A stretch of DNA of 53,305 nt, taken from contig JBHIAE010000021.1 in the NCBI GenBank assembly GCA_046758445.1, forward strand, positions 1-53,305. The letters are read 5' to 3'. The stretch is from Candidatus Thorarchaeota archaeon. Lineage in GTDB: Archaea > Asgardarchaeota > Thorarchaeia > Thorarchaeales > Thorarchaeaceae. Every line of letters starts with the position of its first letter. The stretch's first letter is position 1. Shown piece after piece: positions 2,959-36,104 of this stretch. The notes below the pieces were generated by a model that worked only from the letters and a program-made list of their open reading frames with translations, was not told the DNA's origin and ran no database searches. The position numbers and the translations under genes were made by a program.

Positions 2959-5325
2959 CTACTGGGGGTTTCTGTTCCTAAGAATTGTTGGAAGGTCCAC
3001 TCGGCCAAGAACTCTCACAAGCGGAATTACAGACACCACGGCGGCAACGATTGGGATTGCGATGCTCACAACCATAGGAACAAGACGTACGTAGAATTCC
3101 ATCACGCTCAAAGTCTGACTCATCAGAGGAACCCACACGTAGCCGAGATAGATCGAGGGTGGGATGGAAAGAATGGTGCCGATGATTGAGATGAGAAACA
3201 CCTCGCCGATGAGGATGTTCCTTAGATTCCGCCGGTCAAACCCAATTGCCTCGAGCTGAGCAAATTCGGGCATCCGCTCCATCGTGGTGATGTTGGTCGT
3301 CGTCCAAATGACCAAGAATACGATAGCAACACACATCGCGATGAGGAACCATAGGATTAGGTCGTAGAATCGAAACACTTCTTTTATCCCGTTTGCGGCT
3401 TCTTCGTGAGTTTGAACGCTCTCGACAATGTCGCTCTGCGCTATTGCGCTCTTGACGGACTCGATGTTTGTACCTGCACTAACATCAACAAATGCTCCAG
3501 AGAGAAGAGTTTCATTATCCGGTGCAGGAGCCTTCGAGTAGTCAATGAAGACCGACCTAAAGATTGACTTCGCAATTCCAACTACTGTGAATGCTTCCGT
3601 TGTACCAGCAATCGAGATGTCAAGTTGATTGCCAACGGTCACTCCGCGTGCTTCGGCAATACGCGTTTCCACGACGGCTTCATTGTTCGTCAAGATCTCC
3701 CTCCCTTCCTCCATCTCGAATGATTGTAGCGTCCCAGACGACTCATAGAAGAGGATTTCAAATGGATGCTGAGTACCTGCGAGTTCGGAGAAATAGGACA
3801 CCTTAAAGTACCGCTCGTAGGTTTCAACCTTCAGCGAGTCAAGGATAGTTTCAAGCTCACTCGAAGGCACGGGGTTTCTCATGTCCACGACCAAGTCCCA
3901 GCTCGAATACGCATCCATGTGAACATCGACGCTGAGATAGATGCTGTCGATGTATAGAACAGTGTTCATGACTGAAAAGGACCCAATTAGAATACCAAAG
4001 CAAAGCATCGCGGTACGCATCTTCTGCTTGCTTAAGCTGCGTGCAGCATACCTGAAGGAGTAGGAAACCTTAGTGATGCGTTCTCCAATCGCCTCCAGAA
4101 GAGTTCTCTCAGTAGGTTGGGGGTCGTATTCCAGTCCCCGTAGAACACGAATTGGTTCTAGTTTGGAGATGCGGCATATTGGAGAGATGGACGCAAGAAG
4201 GGCAGTGACCGGAGCAGAAAGCGACCCAAAGATGAACACATCGGGAGGAACGGGACCAGACACCACGGCCATATTCCAATCAGCGAACAACGCCACCATT
4301 AGCCAGACAGTCACGGGCGTAGCTATCAAGGTCGCTATGATTGCAGAGATGAACGTCAAACCCACAAACACAAAGATGAACCCAGACTCGATAGTTCTCG
4401 GATGGTACCCGAGTGATACAAGCACTCCCAGAGACTGCCTTTGATCCTCAATGACTCTCCGTACAACGACATAGACAACCACTGTCGATGTAAGAAGGAC
4501 GATGGCGGACATTATCAACGTCATTTCCTGACCCATCTGTAGTTCGGCAATACCTGCCATCTCACCGAGAAGGTCAGATCCTCTGAAGATGAAGTAGATC
4601 TCCTCACCTTGAAGCACCTCCAACACTTTCTCTGTTGCGGTCTCGTGATCAACCCCTTCGTGAAATATCACTGAGAACTCATTGACCATTCCCGGTTGAC
4701 TTGCAAGATTGGAGAGTACTGAAATGTCTATGAAAAGTGGAGCTGATGAGCCGTGCTGTGGGATCAGCTGCCTAGGATTGGTCGCAGGGACAAGGTATTC
4801 TATTGTCCAGACAATCCCAACTATTCTTAGAGGCGTCCTTACACCGAATAGCTCTACAATCACTGTGTCGTTTATCTCAACATCCTGAGCATTGGCGAAG
4901 TGAATCTCTGCCAATGCAGTCATGTTATCTTCGGGGTCAAGATAGCTGCCTTCTCGAAGATTCAGCTTGAAGATATCAGGCATTGTCGAAGGGTTGACGC
5001 CAAAGAGGTCGCCAGATAATCGTCTGCCATCAGCGAGCTCTACTATTCCTGACACGTCATAGCGTGTGTTGGCTACTTCGACTTCCTGGAGGTTTCTGAT
5101 TGAGTCCACAAGAGCCGGATCCGAGCCGTAAGTGAGAACCGAAAGGTCCGCCATGCCCTCGTCTTCGATGGTCTGCTCAACACTCATGTCGGTAAGGACA
5201 AACATCGACTGCATGACGACGTACGTTAGAGACCCACTGAGTACTAGAGCCAGAGCACTCACAAGACCCAGCCGCTGCCTATTGAGATCTCTGAAGATCT
5301 TCTTCATCAGCAGGGCACGAGTCAT
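2959..5325 (-). CDS. ABC transporter permease, FtsX/MacB-like, with duplicated halves
   Basis: Two repeats of TM, large extracellular domain and three TMs, with LGVLVSLGY and FAQLEAIGF motifs. Start taken as the ATG at 5325, just after the ATPase gene. Confidence 0.85.
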   Translation of the reverse strand: MTRALLMKKIFRDLNRQRLGLVSALALVLSGSLTYVVMQSMFVLTDMSVEQTIEDEGMADLSVLTYGSDPALVDSIRNLQEVEVANTRYDVSGIVELADGRRLSGDLFGVNPSTMPDIFKLNLREGSYLDPEDNMTALAEIHFANAQDVEINDTVIVELFGVRTPLRIVGIVWTIEYLVPATNPRQLIPQHGSSAPLFIDISVLSNLASQPGMVNEFSVIFHEGVDHETATEKVLEVLQGEEIYFIFRGSDLLGEMAGIAELQMGQEMTLIMSAIVLLTSTVVVYVVVRRVIEDQRQSLGVLVSLGYHPRTIESGFIFVFVGLTFISAIIATLIATPVTVWLMVALFADWNMAVVSGPVPPDVFIFGSLSAPVTALLASISPICRISKLEPIRVLRGLEYDPQPTERTLLEAIGERITKVSYSFRYAARSLSKQKMRTAMLCFGILIGSFSVMNTVLYIDSIYLSVDVHMDAYSSWDLVVDMRNPVPSSELETILDSLKVETYERYFKVSYFSELAGTQHPFEILFYESSGTLQSFEMEEGREILTNNEAVVETRIAEARGVTVGNQLDISIAGTTEAFTVVGIAKSIFRSVFIDYSKAPAPDNETLLSGAFVDVSAGTNIESVKSAIAQSDIVESVQTHEEAANGIKEVFRFYDLILWFLIAMCVAIVFLVIWTTTNITTMERMPEFAQLEAIGFDRRNLRNILIGEVFLISIIGTILSIPPSIYLGYVWVPLMSQTLSVMEFYVRLVPMVVSIAIPIVAAVVSVIPLVRVLGRVDLPTILRNRNPQ

Positions 5326-5330
5326 TGATC

Positions 5331-6044
5331 CTAGTCCTCCGTAGGACCCTCTGTAATCCCCCATATTTGTCCAGACCTTAGGAACACCGACCTGTGTGCG
5401 ATCTTGGATACAGACGTTTGGTGCGTAACTGCGATGATGGTAGCCCCAGTTTCTCGGTTCATTCTAAGTATAAGCGACCATATCTCTTCGGATGTTTCTG
5501 CATCGAGATTTCCCGTTGGCTCATCAAGTACTAGAAGAGGTGGTTCCTTTGCCAGGCCCCTCGCGAGGGCGACCCTCTGCTGCTCTCCCCCACTAATCTG
5601 TGACGGAAAGTTGTATGCCTTCTCAGCAATCCCTACCAGCTCGAGATACCTCAGGGCCCTGTCGCGCAGCTCTTCCTTCTCTAGTGCAAACGAGATTCCA
5701 ATCTCCACATTCTCAAGGACATTTAATGTAGCGAAGAGATTGAAAGACTGAAAGACTATGCCTACATTGTGTCGGCGAAAGTGAGTCCTTTCGTCCCTGT
5801 CCAATGACGATATGACCTGATCGCCAACAGTCACAGACCCGGCCGAAGGAGTGTCAAGACCTGAGATCATGTTGAGAAGTGTCGTCTTCCCGGAGCCAGA
5901 TTGGCCAAGAACAGCTATGAACTCCCCCTTCATGATGTCGAGAGAGACGCCTCGAAGAGCCTGGACTGTCACTTCACCCATCTGATAATCGCGAACTACA
6001 TCCGAGATTACAACCTCTTGTTGTGTGGCTATTGCCATCATCAA
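5331..6044 (-). CDS. ABC transporter ATP-binding protein (LolD/MacB type)
   Basis: Walker A GQSGSGKT, signature ISGGEQQR, Walker B/D-loop LVLDEPTGNLD, H-loop VTH. Confidence 0.95.
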   Translation of the reverse strand: MMMAIATQQEVVISDVVRDYQMGEVTVQALRGVSLDIMKGEFIAVLGQSGSGKTTLLNMISGLDTPSAGSVTVGDQVISSLDRDERTHFRRHNVGIVFQSFNLFATLNVLENVEIGISFALEKEELRDRALRYLELVGIAEKAYNFPSQISGGEQQRVALARGLAKEPPLLVLDEPTGNLDAETSEEIWSLILRMNRETGATIIAVTHQTSVSKIAHRSVFLRSGQIWGITEGPTED

Positions 6045-31290: not shown

Positions 31291-31751
31291 CTAGTCATCA
31301 CCTTTCATGAAGGACCATCCTGCAGCTACCATCTCTTTCTTTGTCTTCAACCAGTTGTCAAATCCCTCATCTCTGATCTTTCTCAGGGAAGAAAGTGCTT
31401 TCGGATTATTGCCCAGCAACTCGCAGTTTACCATTCTGATGCAATCAACGCAGGTAGTATAGCCCCTGTCGGAAGCGCACGATCTTACCTTGCAGTCCTT
31501 CCTTCCGCCGCCATCCTTACAACCTTTGCAGCTTCCATACTGTTTCGCCAAACCATCCAAAACTCTCTCAAACTCGTCAAAGTCGGAAATGGATTGGTCT
31601 TCCTCCGAAAGTTGCGCAGCCTTTGCTCCAATGGGATGATGTTCGAGAAATCTCCCAAGTTCATCAGCGTGACCTTTCACTTTGCCTTGATAGACTTCGC
31701 CCCAGCACGGTATAGACCACAATAGGATGTAAAGTCCACTGAGTCAGGCAA
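31291..31751 (-). pseudogene. DUF3795-like Cys-rich protein with an apparent frameshift near the N-terminus
   Basis: TTG 31751 gives MPDSVDFTSYCGLYRAG in one frame. The body (EVYQGKV...CKGCK...CKVRSCA...CVDC...C) lies in another frame, with the junction at the G4 run at 31700-31703. Confidence 0.65.
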
Positions 31752-31955
31752 TGTGTCAGTCTCCAAACAACATTGGTCGTTTTTGAGACAAGTATTGTAC
31801 TAAAAGGGTGTTCAAAAGTGTCCTTGGGCGCCAAAGATGACATTCTTGCAAGAAGACGGCCCCTCTTAAATGGATTCCACATTGTTAAAAGCATGTTCAA
31901 CCAAGAATCTAGGAAGACGGGTTAGGTCATTTCTGCTTAGAGGAGGAAGTATCCT

Positions 31956-32672
31956 GTGACGATAGTAATCGTCAAGTTCCCGGGAACCAACAGTGAGAGG
32001 GACGTGATGCGAGCCCTCATGCCAATTCCTGGTGCTGAGCCTCAGATTGTGTTGAGTCGAGAGGATCCTTCTATTCTTCGAGCTGCAGATGGAGTCATCA
32101 TTCCGGGTGGACTCTCGTACGGAGACTACGTTCGCGTTGGCGCCGCCGACGCAATTGATGGAATGCGGGATGTGATAAGAGGCATCGCGAAATCTGGGAA
32201 GCCCATGCTGGGGATAGGTAACGGGTTCCAGATTCTCTCGGAGTTCGGAATCTTACCGGGCAAGCTAAAGCCAAACAAATCAGGCCGTTTCGTTTCCAAA
32301 TGGGTCTATCTTAGAGTCTGCAAAGACCCAACGGTATTCACAGCAGGACTTGAAGGCAAGGTCATTCGGATACCCATAGCTCATTCCGAGGGAAGGTACA
32401 GAATTGGCAAGAACGGATTGGAACGTCTGAACAGCTCGGGAGGAGTTGTTTTCAGGTACTGCGACGAGGATGGCGAAATAACGCCCCAGGCCAATCCAAA
32501 TGGATCTCTGGAGAATATCGCAGGAGTCGTGAATGCGGAAGGAAATGTAATGGGACTCATGCCTCACCTTGAGAGGGCAGTCAGAGTAGAAACCGGCTCC
32601 AATGATGGACTCTTGATTCTGGAGAGTTTCGTAAGGTCAACAAAGGGCAACTATGGTGTAACCGATGCTTAG
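31956..32672 (+). CDS. purQ: PurQ-like glutamine amidotransferase subunit, nucleophile Cys replaced by Gly
   Basis: FPGTN, PGGLSYGDY, GIGNGFQIL (canonical GICNGFQ), PIAHSEG, NPNGS, GLMPHLER. Confidence 0.9.
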   Translation: MTIVIVKFPGTNSERDVMRALMPIPGAEPQIVLSREDPSILRAADGVIIPGGLSYGDYVRVGAADAIDGMRDVIRGIAKSGKPMLGIGNGFQILSEFGILPGKLKPNKSGRFVSKWVYLRVCKDPTVFTAGLEGKVIRIPIAHSEGRYRIGKNGLERLNSSGGVVFRYCDEDGEITPQANPNGSLENIAGVVNAEGNVMGLMPHLERAVRVETGSNDGLLILESFVRSTKGNYGVTDA

Positions 32673-34809
32673 CGAAAATGAACGTGACCAGTTGGCAGTC
32701 GCTCTAGGTAGAAACCCTACGGAGGTCGAACTAAAGATCGTCGGAGCTCTCTGGTCTGAGCGTCGGAGCTACAAGAGTAGTAGACGCTGGTTCCAACTCT
32801 TCAAGACAGATGGGGAAAGAGTCATACTCGGATTGGGCGGGGGTGCAGGCATGGTTGATCTCGGGGATGGTATTGCTCTAGGGCTTGCACTAGAGTCGAA
32901 CAACCATCCGACTCAGCTAAACCCGTACAATGGTGCCGCCGCTGGTGTTGCAGGTGTTATCAGCGACGTTATTTCACACGGCTGTAAGCCTATAGGCCTC
33001 CTGAACAGCCTCAGGTTCGGAACCCCTGAGGAACCGCGTAACGCAAGCAAGTTGAAGGATGCAATAAAGGGTATCTCAGAGTTCGCTAACAGCGTAGGGA
33101 TACCGATGGTTGGGGGAGAGCTTGAGTTTGACAACTCATTTGAGCGAAACTGCCTTCTGAACATAGCATGCGTCGGCGTGACAGAAACTGGTAAGGTCGT
33201 GAAAGAATTCTCCTCAGATCCAGGATTTCCACTGATTCTATTTGGAGCACTAACCGCGAACGAGAAACTACTAGAGTCCGATGAAAAGTCGCGAGAATCT
33301 GGGGTCACTTCATCTGGAAGCCCTTTGGCGAAGAGAATACTCATCGACACCCTTGAACAGCTACTCGAAGAGAGGCTTCTGTCAGGTCTAGAGGACCTTG
33401 GAGGTGGAGGACTTGCATGGGCAAGTGCCAAGCTGGCTGCCAAGGGAAACATCGGGTTCGAGATTCGTGTGGATGCTGTGCCACTGTCAGAGGATGAGAT
33501 TGACCCAATTGACATTGTCTTGTCAGAATCTCAGGATCGCATGTTGGCAGTAGTCAGTCCTCAGAACCTTGAGCCGGTGCTGAAGATACTTGATGGAAAC
33601 AGAGCACCTCATGCAGTCATCGGCAAGGTAACTGAGGACCAAACAATAACAATGAGTTACTATCTGGATGTCATCGCAAACTTACCTACCGCTCTCCTTG
33701 TCAGTGGTTTTTCAGAGCCAGAACGATATGAAGAGCACCTGCCAGAAAGGTCTGCATCTCATGATTGGCTAAAAGAGCCCAAGAATCACGCAAGAATGCT
33801 GCAATCACTTCTCGAGTCTCTGAACGTCACAAGCAGAGAATGGGTCTATAGCCAGTTTGATCAACATGTTCAAGCGAACACTCTCGTCGACATAGGTCAG
33901 AATGCTGGTGTCCTCGAGGTGGCAAAAGGAAAGAGAGTGGCATTTACTACAACGTGTAACTCCTTTTGGTGCCTTCTTGACCCTAGAATCGGGGCCGCTA
34001 ACTCGTCGTCGTTGGCGCTGAGGAATCTCGTGTCTGTTGGAGCAACACCCATTCTGATGGCTGACTGTATAAACTTGGGAAACCCCGAACGGCCAGAATC
34101 CTACGCTCAGTTTGTAGAAGCAGCAAAGGGAATTGGAGATTTCTCCCACGACTTCGACATACCAGTGATCACTGGCAATGTGTCACCATATAACGAGATT
34201 AGCATTGGAAAAGAAGTTCTGAGAATCAACCCGACACCCCAGGTAGTTATGGCTGGCACGCTAGCTGAAGGTAGACCGCCAATTCGAAGAAGTCTATGCA
34301 CTCCTTGGGCAAATGTCTTCCTCATCGGAGAAACCCATAGAGAGCTAAACGGTTCCGAATTTCAAAGACTTCAACTTGGGCAGGTTCAAGGCATTCCACC
34401 AGGATACCAGCCACGGGCTGAGCAGAAAGCGATGAATGCCGTTCTTTCAGCTCACTCAAATGGAATACTCAGATCCTGCAATAATGTCGGCCGCGGAGGC
34501 CTCGGTGTAGCTCTGCTCAAGATGACAATGGGAGGGGACTATGGGTTCAGGATTGACCTCTCCGATGTACCGGGTACGGCAAAGAGTCTTACAGAGATAC
34601 TCTACTCTGAGAGTTCAGCAAGATACGTAGTGGAAGTCACAGAAACTAAACAGCCAGAGTTTCTCGATATCATGAAACGGCACGAAGTATCAGTTTGCGA
34701 ACTGGGGCTCACAATGGCCGGTTCGACGGCGAATTTCGGAAGCTTTGTGCTTGAAATGGATGATGCTAGAAAGAGCTATCAATCCGGGCTCATCAGATAC
34801 ATGAAGTAG
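32665..34809 (+). CDS. purL: small PurL-like FGAM synthase subunit with substituted catalytic residues
   Basis: LGRNPTEVE, WSERRSYKSS, ESNNHP, LRFG, GGE, SESQDRM, WVYSQFD, GNPE, GNVS, PTP; overlaps purQ by 8 nt. Confidence 0.9.
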   Translation: MLSENERDQLAVALGRNPTEVELKIVGALWSERRSYKSSRRWFQLFKTDGERVILGLGGGAGMVDLGDGIALGLALESNNHPTQLNPYNGAAAGVAGVISDVISHGCKPIGLLNSLRFGTPEEPRNASKLKDAIKGISEFANSVGIPMVGGELEFDNSFERNCLLNIACVGVTETGKVVKEFSSDPGFPLILFGALTANEKLLESDEKSRESGVTSSGSPLAKRILIDTLEQLLEERLLSGLEDLGGGGLAWASAKLAAKGNIGFEIRVDAVPLSEDEIDPIDIVLSESQDRMLAVVSPQNLEPVLKILDGNRAPHAVIGKVTEDQTITMSYYLDVIANLPTALLVSGFSEPERYEEHLPERSASHDWLKEPKNHARMLQSLLESLNVTSREWVYSQFDQHVQANTLVDIGQNAGVLEVAKGKRVAFTTTCNSFWCLLDPRIGAANSSSLALRNLVSVGATPILMADCINLGNPERPESYAQFVEAAKGIGDFSHDFDIPVITGNVSPYNEISIGKEVLRINPTPQVVMAGTLAEGRPPIRRSLCTPWANVFLIGETHRELNGSEFQRLQLGQVQGIPPGYQPRAEQKAMNAVLSAHSNGILRSCNNVGRGGLGVALLKMTMGGDYGFRIDLSDVPGTAKSLTEILYSESSARYVVEVTETKQPEFLDIMKRHEVSVCELGLTMAGSTANFGSFVLEMDDARKSYQSGLIRYMK

Positions 34810-34955
34810 GGATCGAGGGCGAATCACTTCTTCCGAACCACAGGATTCGTGAGCTGTGAATCGCAGTAATCGTTTGGAAAGTTGATATTCACCAAGTTCG
34901 CCCAAGCGCTGGTATAATAAGTCCGTTCTTAAGACATAGCTGGAGCGCTAGAGAG

Positions 34956-36104
34956 ATGAGAGGAAGACTCCAATATCCGTACTCTGAGGCCCTGATGGAC
35001 TACGAGTTCCGGACTGATCATCCACTGAAGCCTGACCGACTTCGCCTGACTTATGAGCTCTCTAGAGAGTTAGGTCTTCTAGAGTCCGTAAATCTCTTCA
35101 AACCGACTATGCCCACAAGAGATGACATCGAGCTTTTCCATACTCCTGATTACATCGACGCAGTCATCGAGTGTGGAGATTCTCTAAGTCCAAAGCCAGA
35201 GTATGGACTAGGCACATCAGACAATCCAGTGTTTCCAAGATTGTATGACGCAGCCAGCAGGTACGTTGGTGCTACTCTTGATGCGATGAAAGAAATCATC
35301 AAGGGTGCATCAAACGCTTTCGTTATCTCCGGTGGACTGCATCACGCGCACCGTAGTATGGCCTCAGGGTTCTGCATATTCAACGACGTAGTCATCTCAG
35401 TCCTTCATCTCCTGAAACAGAAATCGGCCAAGGTCCTGTACTTTGATTTCGATGCGCACCATGGTGACGGTGTTCAGAATGCGTTCTACAAATCGAAAAA
35501 CGTCCTGACAATCTCTGTACACCAGACCGGACAGACCCTCTTTCCAGGGACAGGCTTCATTCATGAAATGGGTGGAGGTGAGGGACTAGGCTACTCAGTC
35601 AACATTCCCGTCTTGCCAGGCGCTAGCAGTGAAGAACTGATCCAAGTAGTAGACGAGGTGGTTGTCCCTCTCTTCAAGTCCTTCGAACCAAACCTCTTGG
35701 TCACACAGCTAGGAGTCGATGGACACTTCATGGACCCACTAGCCTATCTAGGCTATACGACCTATGGATTCGAATCGGCTCTTCAGAAACTCAAGAAGCT
35801 TGCAGACGACATCTGCGACATCGGCTGGCTCGCCGTAGGTGGTGGTGGGTATCACCCCGTGAACGTGGCTCGACTGTGGTCGTTGTTTCTCGCTACGATT
35901 CTAGGGAAGGGTGTACCGAAGGAGCTACCTGAATCATTCCGGGAAAGATGCATCAAACTTGGCTACCATAGCTTTCCCGAAGGGATGAGAGATGAGAATC
36001 CGGTTGTGCAGGCTTATCTTCCGCGCGAACAGGTGGCACTTGACCTGGACCGTATTGTTCGCCGGCTGAAGGAGATGGTCTTCCCATACCACGGAATCGC
36101 CTAA
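34956..36104 (+). CDS. Zn-dependent histone deacetylase family protein (AcuC-like)
   Basis: HPLKPDR, GGLHHA, SGFC, DFDAHHGDGVQ, FPGTG, QLGVDGH..DPL, GGGGY. Confidence 0.95.
   Translation: MRGRLQYPYSEALMDYEFRTDHPLKPDRLRLTYELSRELGLLESVNLFKPTMPTRDDIELFHTPDYIDAVIECGDSLSPKPEYGLGTSDNPVFPRLYDAASRYVGATLDAMKEIIKGASNAFVISGGLHHAHRSMASGFCIFNDVVISVLHLLKQKSAKVLYFDFDAHHGDGVQNAFYKSKNVLTISVHQTGQTLFPGTGFIHEMGGGEGLGYSVNIPVLPGASSEELIQVVDEVVVPLFKSFEPNLLVTQLGVDGHFMDPLAYLGYTTYGFESALQKLKKLADDICDIGWLAVGGGGYHPVNVARLWSLFLATILGKGVPKELPESFRERCIKLGYHSFPEGMRDENPVVQAYLPREQVALDLDRIVRRLKEMVFPYHGIA

Follow-up and report, generated by a model that had tools for sequence, protein, structure and literature searches.

A full-length PurQ–PurL pair without its catalytic residues is conserved in a Thorarchaeota genus that lacks the rest of the de novo purine pathway

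The Locus

The window analyzed here is a stretch of 53,305 nucleotides (nt) from a Candidatus Thorarchaeota archaeon (assembly GCA_046758445.1, contig JBHIAE010000021.1). Its subject is a pair of overlapping genes derived from purQ and purL, the genes for the glutaminase and synthase subunits of formylglycinamidine ribonucleotide (FGAM) synthase. Close homologs at NCBI are named Thorarchaeota (Asgard) metagenome-assembled genome (MAG) proteins and are annotated as PurL. Both products score above the cut-offs that assign proteins to the purine enzyme, and both have lost residues central to its catalysis. An original prediction, made from the sequence alone, had described the open reading frames (ORFs) as full length with an 8-nt overlap, and the coordinates listed below bear this out.

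31956–32672, forward strand: purQ-derived gene, 238 amino acids (aa), GTG start; over the NCBIfam equivalog cut-off (TIGR01737, 258 bits vs 177.8), with a PF13507 match and an alignment to 3d54_D
32217–32219, forward strand: Gly88 codon GGT, replacing the catalytic Cys of GICNG in PurQ
32565–32573, forward strand: PurQ His204-Leu205-Glu206, with the His and Glu of the triad kept
32665–34809, forward strand: purL-derived gene, 714 aa; over the equivalog cut-off (TIGR01736, 625 bits vs 525.75, profile positions 1–716 of 718), with a PurM-type fold of four subdomains and a remodeled synthase site
32761–32766, forward strand: PurL Arg33-Arg34 in place of the His-Cys of WSEHC (T. maritima His32)
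32899–32901, forward strand: PurL Asn79 in place of the first His of ESHNHP
32962–32991, forward strand: PurL Ser100 (formerly Arg), then the kept ATP-signature motif D101-x4-G-C-x-P109
33250–33321, forward strand: stump of the PurL catalytic C-loop, residues ~196–219

The overlap between the two genes is 8 nt long (letters ATGCTTAG), and it is also kept across the genus.

Catalytic Residues Lost and Kept

A HMMER alignment to 3d54_D shows GIGNG at the nucleophile elbow of PurQ, normally GICNG, as originally read from the GGT codon. The Cys-His-Glu triad is left without its Cys (the GxCxG elbow), with His204 and Glu206 kept. Position 88 is Gly in 8/8 full-length orthologs from the same genus and Cys in 18/18 canonical relatives. 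Among the PurQ columns that are invariant or nearly so in the canonical set, 43/60 are kept in the genus, and Cys88Gly is the sole universal switch. The change from HPE to HLE was also read correctly, but it does not stand as a catalytic loss: the His and Glu remain, and Pro205Leu is private to this genome. One subclade, making up half of the genus, also lacks the GGFSYGD glutamine-site loop of PurQ, and a role for the pair as a glutamine sensor is weakened because of this.

PurL was compared by HMMER alignment with the solved proteins 3viu and 2hs0, for which native residue numbering is used. WSEH32C reads WSERR (His33Arg and Cys34Arg), ESH72NHP reads ESNNHP (His79Asn), and GGIIR93D reads AGVISD (Arg100Ser). 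The C-loop has lost both its GRDG and QxGDP motifs, with 9–15 residues deleted. The PurL substitutions and the loss of the two motifs had been noticed in the original reading of the sequence and hold up in the alignments. The same reading took ALESNNHP as a loss of both the Lys and the His of KxESHNHP; the His is indeed lost, but the Lys is not conserved even among canonical relatives, which read AMESHNHP.

Other features of the active site have been retained. PurL keeps the adenosine triphosphate (ATP) signature of the PurM superfamily, known as DX4GAXP (PMC13013826), in the form D101-VISH-G-C-K-P109, and the canonical sister genera likewise have DX4GCXP. The acidic residues Glu77, Asp101, and Asp244 are kept. 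ESQ and GNVS, which had been reported to remain, are present in this PurL, but this does not extend across the genus, half of which has DSQ (SESQ to SDSQ) and GGVS. The former pocket for formylglycinamide ribonucleotide (FGAR) gains net charge through His33Arg, Cys34Arg, Gly201Arg, and Glu256Lys, with Arg100Ser the sole loss.

The roles of the missing parts are known from well-studied enzymes. In the FGAM synthases of T. maritima, Salmonella, and human, the C-loop becomes ordered over bound FGAR and shields the iminophosphate intermediate, and it also signals onward to both the PurS-like domain and the glutaminase (PMC7124931, PMC13013826). By pairing with the C-loop Gln, the first His of ESHNHP (H296 in Salmonella, H311 in human) gates the ammonia channel at its synthase end (PMC7124931, PMC13013826). 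The Thorarchaeota pair thus lacks all four at once: nucleophile, gate, cap, and PurS.

Predicted Structure and Pairing

An AlphaFold2 model of PurL has a mean predicted local distance difference test (pLDDT) score of 89.8 and a predicted template modeling (pTM) score of 0.91. It shows the four-subdomain, pseudo-twofold PurM-type fold and matches T. thermophilus PurL (3viu) with a Foldseek template modeling (TM) score of 0.92. Disorder in the model is confined to the C-loop stump, with pLDDT <50 at residues 202–215.

A predicted PurL–PurQ complex scores 0.85 against 0.00 for the best control, a value that may owe something to memory of the like complex already solved (3D54). That mark was reached by 58/80 solved complexes and by 2/110 mismatched pairs. 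The prediction runs share at least 95% of contacts, with partner pLDDT of at least 87. With the T. maritima complex already solved, the predicted interface is best taken as a likeness to that complex and not as proof of binding.

Conservation, Descent, and Selection

The substitutions are a property of the genus and not of one genome. The same PurL replacements are found in 9/9 full or nearly full same-genus orthologs, and those of PurQ in 8/8, at 60–87% identity; in the sister genera PurQ and PurL are canonical, and Cys and His are kept in every canonical relative. In a collection of 5.8 billion proteins searched for PurL, 17/17 clusters at 60% identity or above have RR and N and lack both GRDG and QxGDP, and all matches below 58% identity are canonical. 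The shared set of substitutions is more than chance, being identical in 17 independent database clusters.

Erosion of conserved PurL columns is concentrated in the synthase half of the protein. Of 159 columns that are invariant or nearly so among 18 canonical Asgard PurLs, 112 are unchanged in the genus, 13 have taken on a new residue that has likewise become fixed there, 31 vary, and 3 are deleted. Conserved columns have been lost in A1 (16/46), B1 (21/46), and, for A2 and B2 together, the C-terminal half (7/46). The auxiliary adenosine diphosphate site of canonical enzymes lies in the C-terminal half. Overall, invariant columns make up 47% of PurL over 8 species of the genus, close to the 48% for canonical PurL over 6 sister genera.

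Selection on the pair is purifying. Over pairs of sequences in which synonymous divergence (dS) is unsaturated, the ratio of nonsynonymous to synonymous divergence (dN/dS) is 0.04–0.10 for PurL and 0.04–0.18 for PurQ, far below 1, and 0.02–0.075 for the histone deacetylase (HDAC)-family gene next door. Between the two subclades of the genus dS is saturated, and both ORFs are intact in every assembled locus except that of one genome, G016. The apparent absence of purL from four other genomes (G001, G003, G010, G013) is uninformative, the locus being unassembled or the contig ending at the HDAC-family gene.

The genus PurL is monophyletic (Shimodaira–Hasegawa-like approximate likelihood ratio test 98) and nested in the family, on a moderately long stem (0.15 + 0.27) with short terminal branches. 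The pair is a vertical, in-place derivative of the purQ–purL of the family. Horizontal gain of a preexisting PurQ with Gly at the nucleophile position was considered and rejected, given that both PurQ and PurL of the genus nest inside the canonical clade of the family.

Three States of One Chromosomal Site

The pair is the only purL and purQ of the genome. A canonical purSQL elsewhere had been suggested as something to look for; a search of the assembly (G000; 3.25 Mb, 92.7% complete) turned up no canonical copy of purL, purQ, or purS outside the pair, and the other PurM-fold matches are paralogs of 331–348 aa that fall well below the cut-offs. The missing purS was correctly noted beside the pair, and none was found in the whole genome. 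Nor does any ORF of this genome pass the cut-off for purS, purD, purC, purE, purB, or guaA. No archaeal-type hypoxanthine phosphoribosyltransferase passes either, and only two generic phosphoribosyltransferase-like ORFs (on C3 and C88) are present. The genus looks like a purine auxotroph unable even to interconvert inosine, adenosine, and guanosine monophosphates, and the cell may have to salvage adenine nucleotides and guanine nucleotides separately.

Across the genus, purM, purF, purS, and purD are over the cut-off in 0/17 genomes, one of which, G004, consists of a single contig of 2.58 Mb. Six sister genera of the family carry the full set of four. Gaps in the assemblies were rejected as the cause, with the four genes lacking from 17/17 genomes and the operon genes physically deleted at the locus.

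The first state of the locus is seen in the sister genera (G017, G019, G023, and G024 examined), where purQ and purL sit inside a ten-gene operon, purN-purF-purP-purP'-purC::purS-purQ-purL-purE::purM-purD-guaA. An example lies at L035:4180-17599 (G019), with others at L036, L037, and L038, all with PurC::PurS and PurE::PurM fusions and two purP paralogs. On the 5' side are an acyl-CoA synthetase alpha gene and then an FMN-dehydrogenase-like gene on the other strand; on the 3' side an HDAC-family gene comes first, followed by a 207-aa ORF and then an amidohydrolase gene.

In the second state, found in the genus of this archaeon (G000, G004, G011, G016), the same flanks hold only a divergent DUF3795 gene, purQ, purL, and the HDAC-family gene. 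Five genes upstream and three downstream of purQ–purL have been deleted; with a deletion on either side of the pair, purQ–purL has therefore been spared. The third state is found in two more genera of the family, G018 (L055, G018:C38) and G020 (L056, G020:C6), in which all ten genes are cleanly deleted between the FMN-dehydrogenase-like and HDAC-family genes. A tblastn search found no remnant of the operon at the locus in these two genomes, and purM, purF, purS, and purD are absent genome-wide there as well. Loss of the whole operon in G018 and G020 means that nothing mechanical prevents the loss of purQ–purL. Purine auxotrophy is recurrent, or ancestral in part of the family. In a tree of four flanking genes, the placement of G016, G018, and G020 relative to the core of the genus has supports of 38–70, values so low that a single loss of the pathway and several losses are not separable.

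The features that surround the pair in the window are as follows.

31291–31722, reverse strand: DUF3795 gene, Cys-rich (CKGC...C...C...CVDC...C), divergent from purQ, on the site of the upstream deletion
31885–31891, forward strand: TTAAAAG, a promoter-like A/T box ~65 nt 5' of purQ, putative in function
31942–31946, forward strand: GGAGG ribosome-binding site, 9 nt 5' of the purQ start, kept in 7/7 aligned genus members
34956–36104, forward strand: HDAC-family gene, the ancestral downstream neighbor of the pur operon, now directly after purL

The A/T box 5' of purQ is kept as TTAAAAG or TTAACAG in 7 aligned sequences of the genus. The DUF3795 gene sits beside purQ in every genus member examined and is not at that position in any sister genus, and it possibly encodes a metal-binding protein. 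A TATAATAA box lies at 34914–34921, ~35 nt 5' of the HDAC-family start, in the 146-nt gap after purL; this TATA-like sequence suggests a separate promoter for the HDAC-family gene in this genome. In the sister operons the HDAC-family gene always follows guaA on the same strand, an odd companion for a purine operon. Its adjacency to purL was rejected as a new functional clue, the order being already in place in the sister genera.

PurQ Without Its Cysteine in Other Lineages

Loss of the PurQ nucleophile is not confined to the Thorarchaeota. In a search of 1.84 billion representative proteins, of which the best 150 clusters were inspected, Gly occupies the nucleophile position in 25 clusters besides the query. 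These fall into three separate groups: the Thorarchaeota genus, a 15-cluster clade, and an 8-cluster clade. The GIGNGFQ elbow of the Thorarchaeota PurQ recurs elsewhere, and members of the 15-cluster clade have GIGNGFQ or GFGNGAQ.

The genomic settings of these groups differ. In the 15-cluster clade, the gene lies among other pur genes in 3 members, all on Logan metagenome contigs (L060:5747-8861, L063:5738-8996, L059:1445-2440). In L060 and L063, purB or an ABC transporter gene precedes purS-purQ(Gly)-purL-purF, with more pur genes after these, and PurL is fully canonical, with WSEHCSYK, ESHNHP, GRDG, and QVGDP kept. The short contig L059 holds only purB and purS beside the Gly-type purQ. These arrangements suggest that FGAM synthesis there is ammonia-dependent and that PurQ remains as a structural subunit. 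The 8-cluster clade consists of orphan Gly-type PurQ-like genes away from pur genes (L058:6001-6717, L061:6001-6717, L062:6001-6684); it includes the Bacteroidales MAG protein MDR2038458.1, and its neighbors include OmpA-like, TamB, and peptidase genes.

Over the six contexts examined, PurL is adjacent in 3 and canonical in the 2 that were read, and in none were the pur genes seen to be stripped out. In this sample only the Thorarchaeota genus combines a dead PurL with a missing pathway. Gly-type PurQ is found in several groups; loss of the Cys is therefore recurrent, and that loss alone need not end the pathway. Recurrent loss fits a glutaminase-independent structural role of PurQ beside PurL.

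What the Pair May Be Retained For

The pair is very probably selected for a job other than FGAM synthesis, being neither an FGAM synthase nor a case of simple decay. As judged from sequence and model, it would count as a pseudoenzyme, one with catalytic residues lost and both fold and purifying selection kept. The proposed mechanism starts from the ordinary purQ–purL genes of the family, from which the pair descends in place. Its role as an FGAM synthase would have ended with the glutaminase nucleophile, both synthase His residues, the FGAR-capping C-loop, and PurS all gone, and purifying selection would keep the pair for another role. Both genes are maintained across the genus as full-length, translationally coupled, slowly evolving units. 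Their product would be a PurL–PurQ heterodimer still folding like the enzyme, with PurQ as a structural partner only. Nucleotide binding would rely on DX4G(A/C)XP, Glu77, Asp101, Asp244, and the C-terminal half, all of which are kept, and the former FGAR chamber would be uncapped and more basic (His33Arg, Cys34Arg, Gly201Arg, Glu256Lys). There is roughly an even chance that the result is a noncatalytic regulatory or scaffold complex that binds nucleotide and uses its uncapped basic pocket for a new ligand or partner.

Several observations weigh against retention for a new role and temper its details. PurL probably still binds an adenine nucleotide, a point taken from motifs only. Residues at the predicted interface of PurL show no extra conservation relative to the remainder of the protein (50% vs 47% invariant). 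Most pairs have saturated dS, and the dN/dS values come from about a dozen closer pairs. Measured against the HDAC-family gene, divergence of PurL in the genus (PurL identities of 61–73% vs 70–85% for the HDAC-family protein) is ~2 times as fast as in the sister genera (68–70% vs 60–62%), so constraint on PurL is relaxed, yet still strong. Finally, the purL of G016 (L057, G016:C115 ~3327-5445, reverse strand) is frameshifted near residue 580 and sits on a very long branch (1.1). This PurL carries other replacements (WSEQASFKS, MRAYNQP, VIGN) and an Asp-to-Asn change in the ATP motif, and the G016 PurQ reads GVAHGFQ and MPYPER. In G016 the pair is probably in decay, and the frameshift and erosion mean that at least one lineage can do without the function.

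A more tentative alternative is that the pair is a neofunctionalized enzyme, in which PurL uses ATP in the manner of PurM, phosphorylating a carbonyl or anion of a new substrate in its Arg-rich pocket, with PurQ as an inert subunit. The PurM fold is versatile, as seen with ThiL, SelD, and HypE, and the ATP signature and acidic metal ligands remain in place. Fixation, not drift, is seen at the 13 switched positions, as would fit a new specificity. However, the C-loop that would shield a reactive iminophosphate is a disordered stump, and half of the genus has also changed SESQ to SDSQ and GNVS to GGVS. In addition, no genus-specific neighbor hints at a pathway, the neighbors being ancestral except for the small DUF3795 gene.

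It is improbable that the pair is a functionless relic of the deleted operon, decaying slowly and not yet disrupted in most lineages. The frameshifted, fast-evolving copy in G016, the complete loss of the pair in two related genera, and the ~2-fold relaxation of constraint relative to the HDAC-family neighbor would all be expected of a relic. The dN/dS values of 0.04–0.18 largely refute it, and the ORFs are intact in all other assembled loci despite saturated dS between subclades. The replacement residues are themselves invariant (RR in 17/17 clusters, for example), and two separate deletions left exactly purQ and purL.

Selection on something other than the proteins, such as an overlapping antisense gene, an RNA element, or translation through the ORFs for expression of the HDAC-family gene, is very improbable. 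That gene does lie downstream on the same strand in all genomes, but a TATA-like box of its own and a gap of 146 nt precede it, and read-through coupling would keep the frames open without holding dN/dS near 0.08. An antisense ORF of 200 aa (205 aa stop to stop) is present in this genome, but antisense ORFs are not conserved, with none of at least 90 aa in G009 or G015, and no Rfam family matches the region; an overlapping antisense gene and a structured RNA were both rejected on these grounds.

That the pair is still an FGAM synthase, perhaps an ammonia-dependent one with substitute catalytic residues feeding an unrecognized route, is barely credible: both proteins are over the equivalog cut-offs, and Gly-type PurQ in otherwise canonical pur operons indicates that Cys loss by itself need not stop the step, but both His residues, Arg100, and the FGAR-binding loop are gone, the 17 genus genomes contain neither the genes for making FGAR (purF, purD, purN) nor purM, whose product would use FGAM, and the other operon genes are physically deleted at the locus. 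With the rest of the de novo pathway missing, the pair therefore cannot serve purine synthesis, and the original conclusion that it cannot be a working FGAM synthase is supported by both the residue losses and the missing pathway. The three checks suggested with it, on a purSQL elsewhere, on the residues of orthologs, and on dN/dS, all turned out in its favor. An ATP-binding complex with a new substrate and a sensor, both put forward originally, stand as candidate roles.

Public annotation of these proteins as PurL and PurQ would lead metabolic reconstructions to credit these Asgard archaea wrongly with a step of purine synthesis. One chromosomal site in three states, with the full operon, a total deletion, or two dead genes kept, makes an unusually clean natural experiment, and it isolates a selected non-FGAM role of the FGAM-synthase scaffold.

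Comparison With Known Systems

The direct ancestor of the pair is the small-type PurL–PurQ–PurS2 FGAM synthase, known from T. maritima (3D54, 2HS0–2HS4) and T. thermophilus (3VIU) and described by TIGR01736 and TIGR01737. The Thorarchaeota pair resembles it in fold (TM 0.92), gene order and overlap, ATP signature, and C-terminal half, and a like PurL–PurQ interface is predicted. Unlike that enzyme, it is without the Cys nucleophile, the equivalents of His32 and His72, the capping C-loop, PurS, and the surrounding pathway. With these catalytic parts and the pathway missing, it cannot be filed as an FGAM synthase.

An archaeal PurQ-like gene without the triad has been described before. In Methanoculleus marisnigri, the extra PurQ Memar_1841 is truncated by ~150 residues, accompanies a full purQ that makes it redundant, and was interpreted as a case of decay (PMC3261824). 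The Thorarchaeota pair, in contrast, is full length, the only copy, and strongly constrained. No prokaryotic PurL or PurQ pseudoenzyme was found in the literature searched.

The closest described analog appears to be the vGAT/ORF75 group of gammaherpesviruses (vFGARATs; PMC7605207; TIGR01739), the only FGAM-synthase pseudoenzyme found in the literature searched. The vFGARATs are likewise homologs of FGAM synthase that lack purine catalysis and are nonetheless conserved and functional. They are viral, single-chain proteins derived from the large eukaryotic enzyme, and they recruit the active PFAS of the host. The Thorarchaeota pair, by comparison, is cellular and two-subunit, arose in situ, and has no active paralog found in its genome. 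A broader parallel is speculative and, on present evidence, rather doubtful: PurL–PurQ might have a second, purine-independent role that outlives the pathway and by itself preserves the scaffold, without its chemistry, once de novo synthesis has gone, in which case the Cys-less PurQ proteins, with at least three origins, would reflect a widespread and undescribed nonenzymatic scaffold function in prokaryotes, akin to that of the vFGARATs. With the only precedent found being viral, a cellular example with many orthologs offers a tractable system for studying what FGAM-synthase scaffolds do.

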